Source of the DNA: a virus
Taxonomy: Duplodnaviria; Heunggongvirae; Uroviricota; Caudoviricetes
Direction: 5' to 3' (one strand)
Length of the DNA stretch: 23,016 bases
IMG/VR virus record: IMGVR_UViG_2563366874_000001
Positions 187 to 21,538 of the stretch are shown here, one piece after another. A model generated the notes under the pieces. The model worked only from the letters and a program-made list of their open reading frames with translations. It did not search any database and was not told the origin of the DNA. A program made the position numbers and the translations under genes. Each line of letters begins with the position of its first letter. Position 1 is the first letter of the stretch.

Positions 187-3867
<3,681 letters not shown>

Positions 3868-3887
<20 letters not shown>

Positions 3888-5583: not shown

Positions 5584-6609
5584 ATGTCGATGTACACAAC
5601 CGCCCAGCTGCTGGCGGCAAATGAGAAGAAATTTAAGTTTGATCCGCTGTTTCTGCGTCTCTTTTTCCGTGAGAGCTATCCCTTCACCACGGAGAAAGTC
5701 TATCTCTCACAAATTCCGGGACTGGTAAACATGGCGCTGTACGTTTCGCCGATTGTTTCCGGTGAGGTTATCCGCTCCCGTGGCGGCTCCACCTCTGAAT
5801 TTACGCCGGGATATGTCAAGCCGAAGCATGAGGTGAATCCGCAGATGACCCTGCGTCGCCTGCCGGATGAAGATCCGCAGAATCTGGCGGACCCGGCTTA
5901 CCGCCGCCGTCGCATCATCATGCAGAACATGCGAGACGAAGAGCTGGCCATTGCTCAGGTCGAAGAGATGCAGGCCGTTTCTGCCGTGCTTAAGGGCAAA
6001 TACACCATGACCGGTGAAGCCTTCGATCCGGTTGAAGTGGATATGGGCCGCAGTGCGGCGAACAACATCACACAGTCCGGTGGTACGGAGTGGAGCAAGC
6101 GTGACAAGTCCACGTATGACCCGACCGACGATATCGAAGCCTATGCGCTGAACGCCAGCGGCGTGGTGAATATCATCGTGTTTGATCCGAAAGGCTGGGC
6201 GCTGTTCCGTTCCTTCAAAGCCGTCAAGGAGAAGCTGGATACCCGTCGCGGCTCTAATTCCGAGCTGGAGACAGCGGTAAAAGACCTGGGCGAAGCGGTG
6301 TCCTATAAGGGGATGTATGGCGATACGGCGATCGTCGTGTATTCCGGACAGTACGTGGAAAACGACGTCAAAAAGAACTTCCTTCCGGACAACACGATGG
6401 TGCTGGGGAACACTCAGGCACGCGGTCTGCGCACCTATGGCTGCATTCAGGATGCGGACGCACAGCGCGAAGGTATTAACGCTTCTGCCCGCTACCCGAA
6501 AAACTGGGTGACCACCGGCGATCCGGCGCGTGAGTTCACCATGATTCAGTCAGCACCGCTGATGCTGCTGGCTGACCCTGATGCGTTCGTGTCCGTACAA
6601 CTGGCGTAA
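5584..6609 (+). CDS. E: Major capsid protein E (341 aa)
   Basis: 341 aa, the length of lambda gpE, in the expected position after D. Begins MSMYTTAQLLAANE. Confidence 0.95.
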   Translation: MSMYTTAQLLAANEKKFKFDPLFLRLFFRESYPFTTEKVYLSQIPGLVNMALYVSPIVSGEVIRSRGGSTSEFTPGYVKPKHEVNPQMTLRRLPDEDPQNLADPAYRRRRIIMQNMRDEELAIAQVEEMQAVSAVLKGKYTMTGEAFDPVEVDMGRSAANNITQSGGTEWSKRDKSTYDPTDDIEAYALNASGVVNIIVFDPKGWALFRSFKAVKEKLDTRRGSNSELETAVKDLGEAVSYKGMYGDTAIVVYSGQYVENDVKKNFLPDNTMVLGNTQARGLRTYGCIQDADAQREGINASARYPKNWVTTGDPAREFTMIQSAPLMLLADPDAFVSVQLA

Positions 6610-7057: not shown

Positions 7058-7411
7058 GTGGCTGATTTCGATAACCTGTTCGATGCTGCCATTGCCCGCG
7101 CCGATGAAACGATACGCGGGTACATGGGAACGTCAGCCACCATGACATCCGGTGAGCAGTCCGGCGCTGTGATACGTGGTGTTTTTGATGACCCTGAAAA
7201 TATCAGCTATGCCGGACAGGGCGTGCGCGTTGAAGGCTCCAGCCCGTCCCTGTTTGTCCGGACTGATGATGTGCGGCAACTGCGGCGTGGAGACACGCTG
7301 ACCATCGGTGAGGAAAACTTCTGGATAGACCGGGTATCGCCGGATGATGGCGGAAGCTGTCATCTCTGGCTTGGGCGTGGCGTTCCGCCTGCCGTTAACC
7401 GTCGCCGTTGA
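7058..7411 (+). CDS. FII: Head-tail connector protein FII (117 aa), GTG start
   Basis: 117-aa ORF, the length of lambda gpFII, with GTG as first codon at 7058 and a GGGAGG Shine-Dalgarno upstream. Confidence 0.88.
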   Translation: MADFDNLFDAAIARADETIRGYMGTSATMTSGEQSGAVIRGVFDDPENISYAGQGVRVEGSSPSLFVRTDDVRQLRRGDTLTIGEENFWIDRVSPDDGGSCHLWLGRGVPPAVNRRR

Positions 7412-7492
7412 AAGGGGGATGTATGGCCATAAAAGGTCTTGAGCAGGCCGTTGAAAGGGGGATGTATGGCCATACAGGGTCTTGAGCAGGCC
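7407..7492 (+). repeat. Tandem direct duplication of 43 bp (2 copies, 2 mismatches) spanning the Z ribosome-binding site and start codon
   Basis: Copy 1 at 7407-7449 is GTTGAAAGGGGGATGTATGGCCATAAAAGGTCTTGAGCAGGCC. Copy 2 at 7450-7492 is identical except ATAAAAGG becomes ATACAGGG. The 10-mer GCCGTTGAAA occurs three times, at 7404, 7447 and 7490, bounding the unit. Confidence 0.9.
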
Positions 7493-8044
7493 GTTGAAAA
7501 CCTCAGCCGTATCAGCAAAACGGCGGTTCCCGGTGCCGCCGCAATGGCCATTAACCGCGTTGCGTCATCCGCGATATCGCAGTCGGCGTCACAGGTTGCC
7601 CGTGAGACAAAGGTACGCCGGAAACTGGTAAAGGAAAGGGCCAGGCTGAAAAGGGCCACGGTCAAAAATCCGCAGGCCAGAATCAAAGTTAACCGGGGGG
7701 ATTTGCCCGTAATCAAGCTGGGTAATGCGCGGGTTGTCCTGTCCCGCCGCAGGCGTCGTAAAAAGGGGCAGCGTTCATCCCTGAAAGGTGGCGGCAGCGT
7801 GCTTGTGGTGGGTAACCGTCGTATTCCCGGCGCGTTTATTCAGCAACTGAAAAATGGCCGGTGGCATGTTATGCAGCGTGTGGCCGGGAAAAACCGTTAC
7901 CCCATTGATGTGGTGAAAATCCCGATGGCGGTGCCGCTGACCACGGCGTTTAAACAGAATATTGAACGGATACGGCGTGAACGTCTTCCGAAAGAGCTGG
8001 GCTATGCGCTGCAGCATCAACTGAGAATGGTAATAAAGCGATGA
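7466..8044 (+). CDS. Z: Tail completion protein Z (192 aa)
   Basis: Begins MAIQGLEQAVENLSRISK from the ATG in the second repeat copy; 192 aa as in lambda gpZ. ATGA overlap with U at the 3' end. Confidence 0.88.
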   Translation: MAIQGLEQAVENLSRISKTAVPGAAAMAINRVASSAISQSASQVARETKVRRKLVKERARLKRATVKNPQARIKVNRGDLPVIKLGNARVVLSRRRRRKKGQRSSLKGGGSVLVVGNRRIPGAFIQQLKNGRWHVMQRVAGKNRYPIDVVKIPMAVPLTTAFKQNIERIRRERLPKELGYALQHQLRMVIKR

Positions 8045-9622: not shown

Positions 9623-10038
9623 GTTTTGCCCTGAAACTGGCGCGTGAGATGGGGCGACCCGACTGGCGTGCCATGCTTGCCGGGATGTCATCCACGGAGT
9701 ATGCCGACTGGCACCGCTTTTACAGTACCCATTATTTTCATGATGTTCTGCTGGATATGCACTTTTCCGGGCTGACGTACACCGTGCTCAGCCTGTTTTT
9801 CAGCGATCCGGATATGCATCCGCTGGATTTCAGTCTGCTGAACCGGCGCGAGGCTGACGAAGAGCCTGAAGATGATGTGCTGATGCAGAAAGCGGCAGGG
9901 CTTGCCGGAGGTGTCCGCTTTGGCCCGGACGGGAATGAAGTTATCCCCGCTTCCCCGGATGTGGCGGACATGACGGAGGATGACGTAATGCTGATGACAG
10001 TATCAGAAGGGATCGCAGGAGGAGTCCGGTATGGCTGA
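9604..10038 (+). CDS. T: T segment of the G-T frameshift fusion tail assembly chaperone (expressed only as gpGT)
   Basis: The -1 frame relative to G is open from the slip site to TGA 10036-10038 and has no independent RBS or ATG. It overlaps the H start. Confidence 0.8.
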   Translation: MFDGELSFALKLAREMGRPDWRAMLAGMSSTEYADWHRFYSTHYFHDVLLDMHFSGLTYTVLSLFFSDPDMHPLDFSLLNRREADEEPEDDVLMQKAAGLAGGVRFGPDGNEVIPASPDVADMTEDDVMLMTVSEGIAGGVRYG

Positions 10039-12592
10039 ACCGGTAGGCGATCTGGTCGTTGATTTGAGTCTGGATGCGGCCAGATTTGACGAGCAGATGG
10101 CCAGAGTCAGGCGTCATTTTTCCGGTACGGAAAGTGATGCGAAAAAAACAGCGGCAGTCGTTGAACAGTCGCTGAGCCGACAGGCGCTGGCTGCACAGAA
10201 AGCGGGGATTTCCGTCGGGCAGTATAAAGCCGCCATGCGTATGCTGCCTGCACAGTTCACCGACGTGGCCACGCAGCTTGCCGGCGGGCAAAGTCCGTGG
10301 CTGATCCTGCTGCAACAGGGGGGGCAGGTGAAGGACTCCTTCGGCGGGATGATCCCCATGTTCAGGGGGCTTGCCGGTGCGATCACCCTGCCGATGGTGG
10401 GGGCCACCTCGCTGGCGGTGGCGACCGGTGCGCTGGCGTATGCCTGGTATCAGGGCAACTCAACCCTGTCCGATTTCAACAAAACGCTGGTCCTTTCCGG
10501 CAATCAGGCGGGACTGACGGCAGATCGTATGCTGGTCCTGTCCAGAGCCGGGCAGGCGGCAGGGCTGACGTTTAACCAGACCAGCGAGTCACTCAGCGCA
10601 CTGGTTAAGGCGGGGGTAAGCGGTGAGGCTCAGATTGCGTCCATCAGCCAGAGTGTGGCGCGTTTCTCCTCTGCATCCGGCGTGGAGGTGGACAAGGTCG
10701 CTGAAGCCTTCGGGAAGCTGACCACAGACCCGACGTCGGGGCTGACGGCGATGGCACGCCAGTTCCATAACGTGACGGCGGAGCAGATTGCGTATGTTGC
10801 TCAGTTGCAGCGTTCCGGCGATGAAGCCGGGGCATTGCAGGCGGCGAACGAGGCCGCAACGAAAGGGTTTGATGACCAGACCCGCCGCCTGAAAGAGAAC
10901 ATGGGCACGCTGGAGACCTGGGCAGACAGGACTGCGCGGGCATTCAAATCCATGTGGGATGCGGTGCTGGATATTGGTCGTCCTGATACCGCGCAGGAGA
11001 TGCTGATTAAGGCAGAGGCTGCGTTTAAGAAAGCAGACGACATCTGGAATCTGCGCAAGGATGATTATTTTGTTAACGATGAAGCGCGGGCGCGTTACTG
11101 GGATGATCGTGAAAAGGCCCGTCTTGCGCTTGAAGCCGCCCGAAAGAAGGCTGAGCAGCAGACTCAACAGGACAAAAATGCGCAGCAGCAGAGCGATACC
11201 GAAGCGTCACGGCTGAAATATACCGAAGAGGCGCAGAAGGCTTACGAACGGCTGCAGACGCCGCTGGAGAAATATACCGCCCGTCAGGAAGAACTGAACA
11301 AGGCACTGAAAGACGGGAAAATCCTGCAGGCGGATTACAACACGCTGATGGCGGCGGCGAAAAAGGATTATGAAGCGACGCTGAAAAAGCCGAAACAGTC
11401 CGGCGTGAAGGTGTCTGCGGGCGATCGTCAGGAAGACAGTGCTCATGCTGCCCTGCTGACGCTTCAGGCAGAACTCCGGACGCTGGAGAAGCATGCCGGA
11501 GCAAATGAGAAAATCAGCCAGCAGCGCCGGGATTTGTGGAAGGCGGAGAGTCAGTTCGCGGTACTGGAGGAGGCGGCGCAACGTCGCCAGCTGTCTGCAC
11601 AGGAGAAATCCCTGCTGGCGCATAAAGATGAGACGCTGGAGTACAAACGCCAGCTGGCTGCACTTGGCGACAAGGTTACGTATCAGGAGCGCCTGAACGC
11701 GCTGGCGCAGCAGGCGGATAAATTCGCACAGCAGCAACGGGCAAAACGGGCCGCCATTGATGCGAAAAGCCGGGGGCTGACTGACCGGCAGGCAGAACGG
11801 GAAGCCACGGAACAGCGCCTGAAGGAACAGTATGGCGATAATCCGCTGGCGCTGAATAACGTCATGTCAGAGCAGAAAAAGACCTGGGCGGCTGAAGACC
11901 AGCTTCGCGGGAACTGGATGGCAGGCCTGAAGTCCGGCTGGAGTGAGTGGGAAGAGAGCGCCACGGACAGTATGTCGCAGGTAAAAAGTGCAGCCACGCA
12001 GACCTTTGATGGTATTGCACAGAATATGGCGGCGATGCTGACCGGCAGTGAGCAGAACTGGCGCAGCTTCACCCGTTCCGTGCTGTCCATGATGACAGAA
12101 ATTCTGCTTAAGCAGGCAATGGTGGGGATTGTCGGGAGTATCGGCAGCGCCATTGGCGGGGCTGTTGGTGGCGGCGCATCCGCGTCAGGCGGTACAGCCA
12201 TTCAGGCCGCTGCGGCGAAACTCCATTTTGCAACCGGAGGATTTACGGGAACCGGCGGCAAATATGAGCCAGCGGGGATTGTTCACCGTGGTGAGTTTGT
12301 CTTCACGAAGGAGGCAACCAGCCGGATTGGCGTGGGGAATCTTTACCGGCTGATGCGCGGCTATGCCACCGGCGGTTATGTCGGTACACCGGGCAGCATG
12401 GCAGACAGCCGGTCGCAGGCGTCCGGGACGTTTGAGCAGAATAACCATGTGGTGATTAACAACGACGGCACGAACGGGCAGATAGGTCCGGCTGCTCTGA
12501 AGGCGGTGTATGACATGGCCCGCAAGGGTGCCCGTGATGAAATTCAGACACAGATGCGTGATGGTGGCCTGTTCTCCGGAGGTGGACGATGA
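10031..12592 (+). CDS. H: Tail tape measure protein H (853 aa)
   Basis: 853 aa, the length of lambda gpH. Long Ala/Gln/Glu/Lys-rich helical region and a C-terminal Gly-rich segment (GSIGSAIGGAVGGGASASGG). Confidence 0.95.
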   Translation: MAEPVGDLVVDLSLDAARFDEQMARVRRHFSGTESDAKKTAAVVEQSLSRQALAAQKAGISVGQYKAAMRMLPAQFTDVATQLAGGQSPWLILLQQGGQVKDSFGGMIPMFRGLAGAITLPMVGATSLAVATGALAYAWYQGNSTLSDFNKTLVLSGNQAGLTADRMLVLSRAGQAAGLTFNQTSESLSALVKAGVSGEAQIASISQSVARFSSASGVEVDKVAEAFGKLTTDPTSGLTAMARQFHNVTAEQIAYVAQLQRSGDEAGALQAANEAATKGFDDQTRRLKENMGTLETWADRTARAFKSMWDAVLDIGRPDTAQEMLIKAEAAFKKADDIWNLRKDDYFVNDEARARYWDDREKARLALEAARKKAEQQTQQDKNAQQQSDTEASRLKYTEEAQKAYERLQTPLEKYTARQEELNKALKDGKILQADYNTLMAAAKKDYEATLKKPKQSGVKVSAGDRQEDSAHAALLTLQAELRTLEKHAGANEKISQQRRDLWKAESQFAVLEEAAQRRQLSAQEKSLLAHKDETLEYKRQLAALGDKVTYQERLNALAQQADKFAQQQRAKRAAIDAKSRGLTDRQAEREATEQRLKEQYGDNPLALNNVMSEQKKTWAAEDQLRGNWMAGLKSGWSEWEESATDSMSQVKSAATQTFDGIAQNMAAMLTGSEQNWRSFTRSVLSMMTEILLKQAMVGIVGSIGSAIGGAVGGGASASGGTAIQAAAAKLHFATGGFTGTGGKYEPAGIVHRGEFVFTKEATSRIGVGNLYRLMRGYATGGYVGTPGSMADSRSQASGTFEQNNHVVINNDGTNGQIGPAALKAVYDMARKGARDEIQTQMRDGGLFSGGGR

Positions 12593-19141: not shown

Positions 19142-21538
19142 ATGGCAGTAAAGATTTCAGGTGTACTGAAAGACGGCACAGGAAAACCGGTACAGAACTG
19201 CTCAATCCAGCTGAAAGCAAAACGTAACAGCACCACGGTGGTAGTGAACACGCTGGCCTCAGAAAATCCGGATGAAGCCGGGCGTTACAGTATGGATGTT
19301 GAGTATGGCCAGTACAGCGTTATCCTGCTGGTTGAAGATTTTCCGCCTTCACATGCCGGGACCATCACCGTGTATGAAGATTCTAAGCCGGGGACGCTGA
19401 ATGATTTTCTCGGTGCCATGACGGAAGATGATGTCATGCCGGAGGCATTGCGTCGTTTTGAGGAAATGGTGGAAGAAGCGGCACGCAACGCTGAAGCCGC
19501 CTCTCAGAGCGCAGCGGCGGCAAAGAAATCCGAAACTGCAGCGGCATCATCGAAGAACGCGGCGAAAACCTCAGAAACGAATGCAGCTAATAGTGCACAG
19601 GCGGCAGCGACCTCAAAGACTGCATCGGCAAACTCCGCGACAGCAGCCAAAAAATCAGAAACCAACGCGAAAAATAGCGAGACAGCCGCAAAGACGAGCG
19701 AAACCAACGCAAAGTCCAGCCAGACGGCAGCGAAAACCAGCGAAACGAATGCCAAAGCCAGTGAAACTGCGGCAAAAAACAGCCAGGTTGCAGCAGCCCA
19801 AAGCGAGAGCGCGGCAGCCGGTTCTGCGACTTCAGCAGCTGGATCAGCAACTGCTGCGGCTAACAGCCAGAAAGCTGCGAAGACGAGTGAAACTAACGCA
19901 AAGTCCAGCCAGACGGCAGCGAAGACCAGCGAAACGAATGCCAAAACCAGCGAAACTGCGGCGAAAAACAGTCAGGATGCAGCAGCCCAAAGCGAGAGTG
20001 CTGCAGCTGGTTCTGCAAGCGCGGCAGCTGCTTCTGCCACTGCATCAGCCAACAGTCAAAAAGCAGCAAAAACCAGTGAAACCAATGCAAAGACAAGCGA
20101 GACTGCAGCGGCGAACTCGGCGAAAGCATCGGCAGCAAGCCAGACAGCAGCTAAAGCAAGTGAAGACGCAGCCAGAGAGTATGCAAGTCAGGCAGCAGAG
20201 CCGTATAAATATGTCTTACAGCCACTGCCTGATGTGTGGATACCGTTTAACGATTCACTGGATATGATTACGGGCTTTTCGCCGTCATATAAAAAAATTG
20301 TTATTGGTGATGATGAAATAACGATGCCTGGCGACAAGGTTGTTAAGTTTAAACGCGCATCAACTGCCACATATATCAATAAATCAGGCGTATTTAGTGT
20401 TGCTAAAATTGATGAGCCACGATTTGAAAAAGAAGGTTTATTGATTGAAGGACAGCGCACTAACTATTTTGTTAAATCCAATACTCCCGCTGAATGGACG
20501 AGTACCAGCAATATCGATAAAACTAATAATGGTGTTGATGAATTTGGTTTTTCATATGCCAAAATGCGAACAAAAGATAATATGACAGGACAATCATCTG
20601 CACTTAGTCTGCATACATGCAGTGCATCCCGGGGGATTGATGTTAGTGGCGATAATAAGTATTGCACTGTTTCATGCAGGGTTAAAGCTCCTGATGGTCT
20701 TCGTTGTCGTTTGCGTTTTGAAAAATACGATGGGTCGGTTTATACATTTTTAGGAGATGCTTATTTAACTTTCGGAACTCTGATAATAGAAAAAACTGGC
20801 GGAGCAGCCAATAGAATAGCAGCTACTGCAACTAAAGATCCGGTTACAGGGTGGATTTTCTATGAGGCAACTATAGAAGCTGTTGAAGGTGAAACCTTAA
20901 TTGGCGCAATGATTCAGTATGCGCCGAAAAAAGGTGGTATAACTGAAGCGGGAGATTATATTTACCTTGCAACACCACAATTTGAAAACGGCGGATGTGC
21001 TTCATCTTTTGTTATTACGACAACTGCACCCGCAACCCGCTCCAGTGATATGGTGACGATCCCAACTGAAAATAATATCTATAATAGACCGCTTACGTGT
21101 CTTGTCGAGGTTAATAGAAATTGGGGCGATATTCCTCCTAATGTAGCACCGCGTATTTTTGATTTTTCTGGTGTGCCACCTATTGAGTCAATTACATACG
21201 CTTTTAACACAACTGAGAAATATTACGGTCAGCTTTATATGCAAACTTATAAAGCGTCGACAAGTACTTACGTTTCTAGTGTGTTTGCTGGTCGAGCTGA
21301 TGTTCGAAAATTCATTGGTGGTTTTAATATTTATTCTGATGGTACTAAACGAGTAGTTTCTAACGGTGAGGCTACTAAAACTATGAAAACGGAGTGGACG
21401 GGCGTAAAAACACGGACCTTTATTCGAATTGGAGGTCAAGCCACATCGGGAACTCGTCATCTATTCGGCCATTTGAGAAATCTTCGTCTCTGGCATAAAG
21501 AATTAACTGATGCGCAAATGGGGGAGAGTATTAAATGA
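19142..21538 (+). CDS. stf: Side tail fiber protein (798 aa), mosaic: lambda-Stf-like N-terminus, Ala/Ser/Thr-rich repeat shaft, low-GC C-terminal receptor-binding region
   Basis: The N-terminus MAVKISGVLKDGTGKPVQNC...TITVYED matches my recollection of the lambda Stf N-terminal domain. Residues about 120-350 are AAKTSETNAK-type repeats. From about nt 20200 the sequence is AT-rich and ends with a LamG/ConA-like signature (HLFGHLRNLRLWHKELTDAQMGE). Confidence 0.85.
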   Translation: MAVKISGVLKDGTGKPVQNCSIQLKAKRNSTTVVVNTLASENPDEAGRYSMDVEYGQYSVILLVEDFPPSHAGTITVYEDSKPGTLNDFLGAMTEDDVMPEALRRFEEMVEEAARNAEAASQSAAAAKKSETAAASSKNAAKTSETNAANSAQAAATSKTASANSATAAKKSETNAKNSETAAKTSETNAKSSQTAAKTSETNAKASETAAKNSQVAAAQSESAAAGSATSAAGSATAAANSQKAAKTSETNAKSSQTAAKTSETNAKTSETAAKNSQDAAAQSESAAAGSASAAAASATASANSQKAAKTSETNAKTSETAAANSAKASAASQTAAKASEDAAREYASQAAEPYKYVLQPLPDVWIPFNDSLDMITGFSPSYKKIVIGDDEITMPGDKVVKFKRASTATYINKSGVFSVAKIDEPRFEKEGLLIEGQRTNYFVKSNTPAEWTSTSNIDKTNNGVDEFGFSYAKMRTKDNMTGQSSALSLHTCSASRGIDVSGDNKYCTVSCRVKAPDGLRCRLRFEKYDGSVYTFLGDAYLTFGTLIIEKTGGAANRIAATATKDPVTGWIFYEATIEAVEGETLIGAMIQYAPKKGGITEAGDYIYLATPQFENGGCASSFVITTTAPATRSSDMVTIPTENNIYNRPLTCLVEVNRNWGDIPPNVAPRIFDFSGVPPIESITYAFNTTEKYYGQLYMQTYKASTSTYVSSVFAGRADVRKFIGGFNIYSDGTKRVVSNGEATKTMKTEWTGVKTRTFIRIGGQATSGTRHLFGHLRNLRLWHKELTDAQMGESIK
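19688..20062 (+). repeat. Two tandem copies of an approximately 186-189 bp (62-63 aa) in-frame coding repeat within stf, themselves built from roughly 21-bp (7-aa) sub-repeats
   Basis: Copy 1 at 19688-19873 encodes AKTSETNAKSSQTAAKTSETNAKASETAAKNSQVAAAQSESAAAGSATSAAGSATAAANSQK. Copy 2 at about 19877-20062 encodes the same with a few substitutions. The segment AAAGTCCAGCCAGACGGCAGCGAA recurs at 19710 and 19890. Confidence 0.85.

Follow-up and report, generated by a model that had tools for sequence, protein, structure and literature searches.

A rare 43-bp tandem duplication at the FII–Z junction of lambda-like phages looks like a tolerated recombination scar

The window (the whole stretch of viral DNA that was analysed, 23,016 nucleotides; IMG/VR record IMGVR_UViG_2563366874_000001) carries a lambda-type late operon, from terminase through tail fibres. 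At the boundary between FII and Z lies a tandem repeat, which TRF placed at 7404–7499 (period 43, 2.2 copies, 96% matches, 0 indels, score 178). The gene FII is named so in the phage genome PhiR49_1, and PGAP calls its product a head-tail joining protein in the genomes that carry the duplication. The boundary is made up of the following features:

7058–7411, + strand: FII (head-tail joining protein) coding sequence, from the ORF listing and a Pfam match (PF05354 Phage_attach, E=1.1e-19).
7404–7413, + strand: first 10-mer GCCGTTGAAA, the last FII codons and stop; lambda and most relatives read GCCGCTGAAA here.
7404–7446, + strand: repeat copy 1, with the 10-mer, a Shine-Dalgarno (SD) sequence AAGGGGG at 7412–7418, an ATG at 7423 and Z-like codons 1–8, of which codon 4 is AAA (Lys) (TRF, sequence and lambda alignment).
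7409–7411, + strand: FII TGA stop, inside the first 10-mer.
7421–7475, + strand: potential mRNA helix of 11 bp, 7421–7431 with 7465–7475 (MFE and centroid structures; duplex −16.6 kcal/mol).
7423–7485, + strand: decoy ORF of 20 codons plus TGA (stop at 7483–7485), encoding MAIKGLEQAVERGMYGHTGS (ORF listing).
7447–7489, + strand: repeat copy 2, with the second 10-mer, an SD at 7455–7461 and the true Z ATG at 7466; codon 4 is CAG (Gln) (sequence and TRF).
7466–8044, + strand: Z (tail completion protein) coding sequence, 192 aa, intact (ORF listing, Pfam and gpZ alignment).
7490–7499, + strand: third 10-mer GCCGTTGAAA, Z codons 9–12 (AVEN) (sequence and lambda alignment).

The duplicated 43 bp spans the end of FII, the Z ribosome-binding site and Z codons 1–8. 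The two copies stand head to tail without a spacer and match at 41/43 positions, an agreement far beyond the level expected by chance. Mismatches are confined to two sites, 7432 (A) versus 7475 (C) and 7434 (A) versus 7477 (G), both within Z codon 4, which reads AAA in copy 1 and CAG in copy 2. At the position of the first 10-mer, 99/109 AAA-allele single-copy loci among the IMG/VR matches listed read ...GCCGCTGAAA; the C at 7408 is also present in the carriers L006, L126 and L128. The first-pass annotation of this DNA had proposed a 43-bp tandem duplication bounded by three GCCGTTGAAA 10-mers, and both TRF and the sequence agree that it is genuine. Its unit length of 43 was right, while the unit as typed had only 42 letters, one A after CCAT being missing. 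The ORF listing also bears out its description of copy 1 as carrying a complete SD and an ATG at 7423, which open a 20-codon out-of-frame ORF overlapping the Z start.

Z is 191/192 identical (99%) to lambda gpZ, with K4Q as the sole change, and matches Pfam PF06763 Minor_tail_Z along its full length (E=3.6e-81; the score of 272 bits clears the curated cut-off of 23.9, and profile positions 1–190 of 190 are covered). The Z start was put at the second ATG (7466) by PGAP and by the PhiR49_1 annotators, in all carriers, and copy 2 preserves the Z ribosome-binding site from −19 together with the entire Z ORF. Copy 1 has the same SD (AAGGGGG), spacing and first 8 codons as Z, and the gap of 11 nt from the FII stop to its ATG is the native gap, as in lambda. 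The components of a decoy are all present: a suitably spaced SD, a start codon and an ORF that runs across the main start. This ORF is out of the Z frame (the ATG-to-ATG offset of 43 nt is 3 × 14 + 1), overlaps the Z start by 20 nt and ends 17 nt past the Z ATG. A TTG at 7439, in the Z frame, was considered as an alternative start and rejected, as it has no usable SD. A separate ATG lies 4 nt upstream of the Z ATG (GGGGGATGTATGG; window 7419–7442 and 7462–7485; also in lambda) and opens a 7-codon out-of-frame mini-ORF, MYGH[K/T][R/G]S, which is general in lambda-type phages; the decoy ORF from 7423 finishes in the frame of this mini-ORF, at its stop.

The genes neighbouring Z are intact in the carriers, and the head and tail genes are unflagged in three complete genomes. 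The window itself has an amber codon (TAG, 3078–3080) in portal gene B (2286–3887), at a conserved CAG position (…DTL*NTQ…), which splits the gene into ORFs of 264 aa and 260 aa. This codon is CAG in 44 other loci, TAG is shared only by the IMG/VR contig L004, and the amber version matched 0 of 3,182 complete E. coli records. Whatever the state of Z, the prophage in the window may be defective, perhaps not producing phage, or the portal TAG may be a sequencing error. Further along, nested tandem repeats occupy 19639–20110 (periods 21, 42 and 189 bp; the 189-bp unit is present 2.3 times with 83% matches). They lie inside an ORF of 798 aa (19142–21538), the N-terminus of which matches Pfam PF08400 (prophage tail fibre N-terminal), and they form a repetitive, probably length-variable side-tail-fibre segment.

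Wild-type lambda (NC_001416, 7963–8010) has exactly one copy of the 43 bp, and its alignment to the window contains a clean 43-nt gap. The lambda junction shares with the window the genes, the SD AAGGGGG, the ATGTATGGCCATA start context, the 11-nt spacer and the 10-mer pair; it differs in having one copy, no decoy ORF, GCCGCTGAAA as the upstream 10-mer and only AAA at Z codon 4. The flanking 10-mers of lambda stand 43 bp apart (GCCGCTGAAA at the FII stop, GCCGTTGAAA at Z codons 9–12) and match at 9/10 positions; in E. coli A36, which is also single-copy, the pair is perfect (10/10). H88 (from strain A36) first looked like a second junction variant and was, on inspection, an ordinary single copy. 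Overall, lambda and ~99.8% of its relatives have one copy. A single copy in lambda had been expected by the first-pass annotation; it is found there and also in about 3,480 of the 3,489 E. coli genomes carrying the locus. Because the vast majority of relatives are single-copy, the duplication is, judged by this comparison, derived and not ancestral.

The full junction 62-mer was present in 7 of ~3,500 complete E. coli records with the locus. These represent 6 distinct genomes (the carrier KK19-02 was deposited twice), or ~0.17% of the E. coli genomes carrying the locus, and 7/7 records are 100% identical over the 62-nt junction probe. The complete genomes are independent, coming from the USA, the UK, Australia and elsewhere. 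Two of the 91 phage records with the locus also carry the duplication, PhiR49_1 and PhiR49_1_star (a 'star' derivative), both 100% identical to window 7250–7650. Three IMG/VR viral contigs and two JGI metagenome contigs are further carriers. The junction was absent from 185,579 GTDB species-representative genomes. A literature search for an FII–Z duplication found no description of it; the sequence itself was already public. As a separate observation, PhiR49_1 (L001, PV340568; locus 5782–6401) has a 1-nt deletion relative to the window in a G-run (GGGG to GGG, window about 10318), which splits its tape-measure gene H into two annotated CDS. This deletion may be a homopolymer sequencing error in the record; H is intact in the window (10031–12592, 853 aa).

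These records bear on whether the repeat exists in real DNA at all. Beyond the general risk that attends short repeats, nothing points to a mis-assembly, and we give this explanation next to no probability: the identical junction occurs in independent complete genomes, in a phage isolate genome, in three IMG/VR contigs and in two metagenome contigs, and a 43-bp repeat is shorter than any sequencing read length and is not something that assemblers create. The first-pass annotation had named two outcomes that would count against it, relatives all being two-copy and the repeat collapsing on resequencing. What we found is that the overwhelming majority of relatives are single-copy and that the junction recurs in independent assemblies.

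The carriers share more than the length of the repeat. The 86-bp core is identical in every one, with the AAA copy first and the CAG copy second. Their flanks vary, at 7408 (T/C, in the first 10-mer), 7378 and 7384 on the left and at 7528 and 7531 on the right, giving at least 5 flank haplotypes. The metagenome carrier L128 goes further: its FII is only about 74% identical to that of the window and is 96% identical to the divergent head type of L110 and L015, so the duplication is found on two different head-gene modules. As an identical hybrid core on differing flanks makes a repeated origin very unlikely, we read the pattern as a single origin, after which recombination carried the allele to other genomes, the duplication apparently travelling with the tail (Z) side.

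Both alleles of Z codon 4 are also found outside the duplication. The CAG version with its downstream context has an exact 61/61 match in 233 E. coli records; the matches listed also cover the end of FII, which means that CAG is single-copy there. Among the IMG/VR matches listed, the single-copy loci comprise 109 with AAA and 11 with CAG. The AAA/CAG difference between the copies is most likely an imported polymorphism, not accumulated mutation. The two mismatches share a codon, and AAA and CAG are each common among single-copy phages, so the mismatches cannot serve as a molecular clock. The first-pass annotation had read the 2/43 differences as a sign of age, and this does not hold for the same reason. 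Its broader point, that the duplication is not brand new, is upheld on other grounds, as the identical core sits in many flanks.

The location of the repeat is also informative. Among the 11 single-copy CAG loci, 8 have head genes that are only 65–74% identical to those of the window, and all 8 become ~98% identical from the FII stop and Z ribosome-binding site onwards. A sharp switch within the last ~20 bp of FII (window about 7395–7420) was seen in L012, L015, L026, L039, L086, L087, L090, L110 and L128, and in these nine the head genes are only 65–74% identical to those of the window, against ~98% for the Z gene and downstream tail genes. As similarity jumps exactly at the FII stop and Z ribosome-binding site, we take the FII–Z junction to be a head/tail mosaic boundary.

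Putting these observations together, we consider it fairly probable that the duplication is a rare natural FII–Z allele which arose by a single mis-registered recombination, carries a translated decoy and is near-neutral. The substrate would be the near-identical 10-mers that lambda-like phages all appear to have 43 bp apart, GCCG[C/T]TGAAA at the FII stop and GCCGTTGAAA at Z codons 9–12, as a single out-of-register recombination between them would yield the duplicate. The most likely parents would be two co-resident phages, one with Lys4 (AAA) contributing the left side and one with Gln4 (CAG) contributing the right side, such that the downstream 10-mer of the AAA-type phage was joined to the upstream 10-mer of the CAG-type phage. 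Head and tail clusters are frequently re-joined at the FII–Z junction, a module boundary, and the duplicated allele would later have spread by ordinary recombination, carried with the tail module. No left parent turned up among complete E. coli genomes, in which the best single-copy match to the left arm of the window is 98.7% identical.

Short tandem duplications and deletions arise between short direct repeats, by slipped-strand mispairing or short-homology recombination, with classic examples in lacI and in phage T4 rII. The FII–Z duplication shares the hallmarks of this class: there is no spacer, the single-copy form has the repeat at both ends of the unit and the product has three. It differs in that its copies carry different natural alleles of one codon, which points to two genomes recombining and not to slippage within one. 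Slippage during replication of a single genome would give two identical copies, so the second Z allele would have to be imported later, by a short patch of recombination or conversion, or else two point mutations would be needed. Some single-copy phages, such as the one in A36, do offer a perfect 10/10 direct repeat for slippage. The single-copy CAG locus L029 would also suit slippage: to the right of the repeat its identity to the window is 100% across 600 bp, and to the left, where its haplotype matches that of the carrier L006, the figure is only 97.5%, so that an L029-like genome could be the sole parent. Nevertheless, we regard slippage as unlikely. It calls for two rare events as opposed to one; an AAA patch in copy 1 would require a crossover within about 22 bp of shared sequence; and two de novo changes that recreate a common allele while the other 84 bp of the core stay invariant are very unlikely. 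A hybrid origin by recombination between two phages is thus the likeliest on the sequence comparisons.

The mosaic junctions of lambdoid phages offer a close parallel. Lambda Red recombines diverged phage DNA with high efficiency, and mosaicism has been proposed to result from it (Martinsohn, Radman and Petit 2008; PMC2327257). The duplication resembles these Red-promoted, homeologous or short-homology junctions in its site, at the head/tail boundary, and in the occurrence of the duplicated allele on both head types. It differs in that mosaic junctions are usually in register and create no duplication, whereas here the exchange was apparently 43 bp out of register. The event is of an ordinary kind, a short-homology tandem duplication, at an informative phage module boundary.

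We then considered what the duplication would do to Z. As copy 2 keeps the Z ribosome-binding site from −19 and the whole Z ORF, Z should still be made. The copy 1 ribosome-binding site lies at the native distance from the FII stop, so the decoy should be translated as well, yielding a 20-residue out-of-frame peptide, with initiation at 7423 expected to be about as frequent as Z initiation in a one-copy phage. Within their 20 codons, decoy ribosomes would pass over the second SD and ATG, coming to a stop 17 nt after the Z ATG. In doing so they may mask the Z start for a short time, hold the region open and be released near enough to re-initiate at Z. We infer both decoy translation and its effect on Z from the identity in sequence of the two ribosome-binding sites, and expect the change in Z output to be modest at most. 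Overlapping upstream ORFs, and translational coupling by termination-reinitiation, are familiar from bacterial operons. The decoy is similar in being a short ORF with its own SD that ends just past a downstream start in another frame; it differs in being an accidental copy of the Z start region, with its translation a prediction.

Folding predictions for the mRNA are mixed. The Z start lies in the palindrome TATGGCCATA, an 8-nt version of which (ATGGCCAT) occurs again at Z codons 27–29 (7544–7551). The full 10-nt palindrome TATGGCCATA occurs twice in the window's junction, at 7422–7431 and 7465–7474, and because it is now present twice the two start regions can pair over 11 bp. In the global fold, the predicted P(unpaired) of the Z AUG falls from 0.11 in the one-copy form to 0.018 (~0.02) in the two-copy form, which could mean a larger drop in Z than assumed above. 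The predicted one-copy form already pairs the Z start with the third AUGGCCAU at 7544–7551. The predicted opening energies of the Z ribosome-binding site, two-copy versus one-copy, are 13.3 versus 13.0 and 11.1 versus 12.4 kcal/mol at two window settings, and the fold energy of the segment is unexceptional (z = −0.47). The global fold and the local opening energies disagree, and these models predict no robust structural effect on the Z ribosome-binding site.

The first-pass annotation had suggested that the decoy could lower or modulate Z translation. A stronger role along these lines can be envisaged, in which Z synthesis is substantially reduced or tuned by the decoy ribosome-binding site and ATG, perhaps with help from the 11-bp helix, and the allele was kept since an altered Z dosage benefits the phage. 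Several of the features above suit such a role: a decoy ribosome-binding site that is identical to that of Z and keeps the native coupling distance to the FII stop, the sequestration of both AUGs in the global fold, the C at 7475 (from the CAG allele) that supplies the 11th base pair of the helix, and the survival of the allele through transfer onto several backgrounds. However, a frequency of ~0.17% is not what a favoured allele would show, local accessibility reveals no consistent change and the overall fold energy is not exceptional. CAG also pre-exists in single-copy phages and so was not selected for the helix, and the core is without variation by which constraint could be tested. Taken together, we consider a regulatory role of this strength quite unlikely. 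Its most demanding form, a selected translational device in which Z depends strictly on ribosomes relayed from FII to the decoy ORF, with the 11-bp helix as a part, we judge to be very improbable.

A further possibility is recoding. Ribosomes that start at 7423 could slip by +1 close to the decoy stop (UCU UGA G) and so make an N-terminally longer Z, as a +1 shift at 7480–7485 does enter the Z frame, and the stop context with the upstream AGGGGG loosely resembles the prfB site. A prfB-type programmed +1 site has a slippery P-site codon that can re-pair in +1, a stop in poor context and, about 3 nt upstream, an SD-like element. At the decoy stop (...ACA GGG UCU UGA G), by comparison, the P-site UCU is unable to re-pair with CUU, and AGGGGG precedes the would-be shift codon by 20 nt as opposed to 3 nt in prfB; a programmed frameshift of the prfB type was rejected for this stretch. 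The arrangement is also a by-product of the duplication, without sign of conservation or selection. We regard recoding in general as extremely unlikely.

The distribution of the allele is consistent with tolerance. Z was scored essential in lambda (PMC10695390), so a carrier growing as a phage must still make Z. The duplication is present in the deposited phage genome PhiR49_1, the record of which names a propagation host, and it is on this named host that the viability of PhiR49_1 rests. This presence, and the persistence of the allele through several recombinations, argue against a strong defect, and the allele is probably tolerated and near-neutral; the frequency of ~0.17% suggests no advantage. 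Weighing the other way are the split gene H in the PhiR49_1 record and the amber codon in the portal gene of the window. Overall, the duplication looks like a tolerated recombination scar with an accidental upstream ORF, and not like a new kind of regulator.

For annotation, the duplication is a caution that the first good ribosome-binding site and ATG after FII are not the Z start in carrier phages. For phage evolution, it provides a clean marker allele, with one apparent origin, several backgrounds and two head modules, and it documents recombination where the head and tail genes of lambda meet, placing the breakpoints to within a few bases. If the relay device, improbable as we consider it, were real, the ratio of head to tail proteins would be reset in carrier phages. 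If the decoy alters Z output at all, it would be a natural case in which a one-step scar at a module boundary created an upstream ORF and retuned an essential tail gene.
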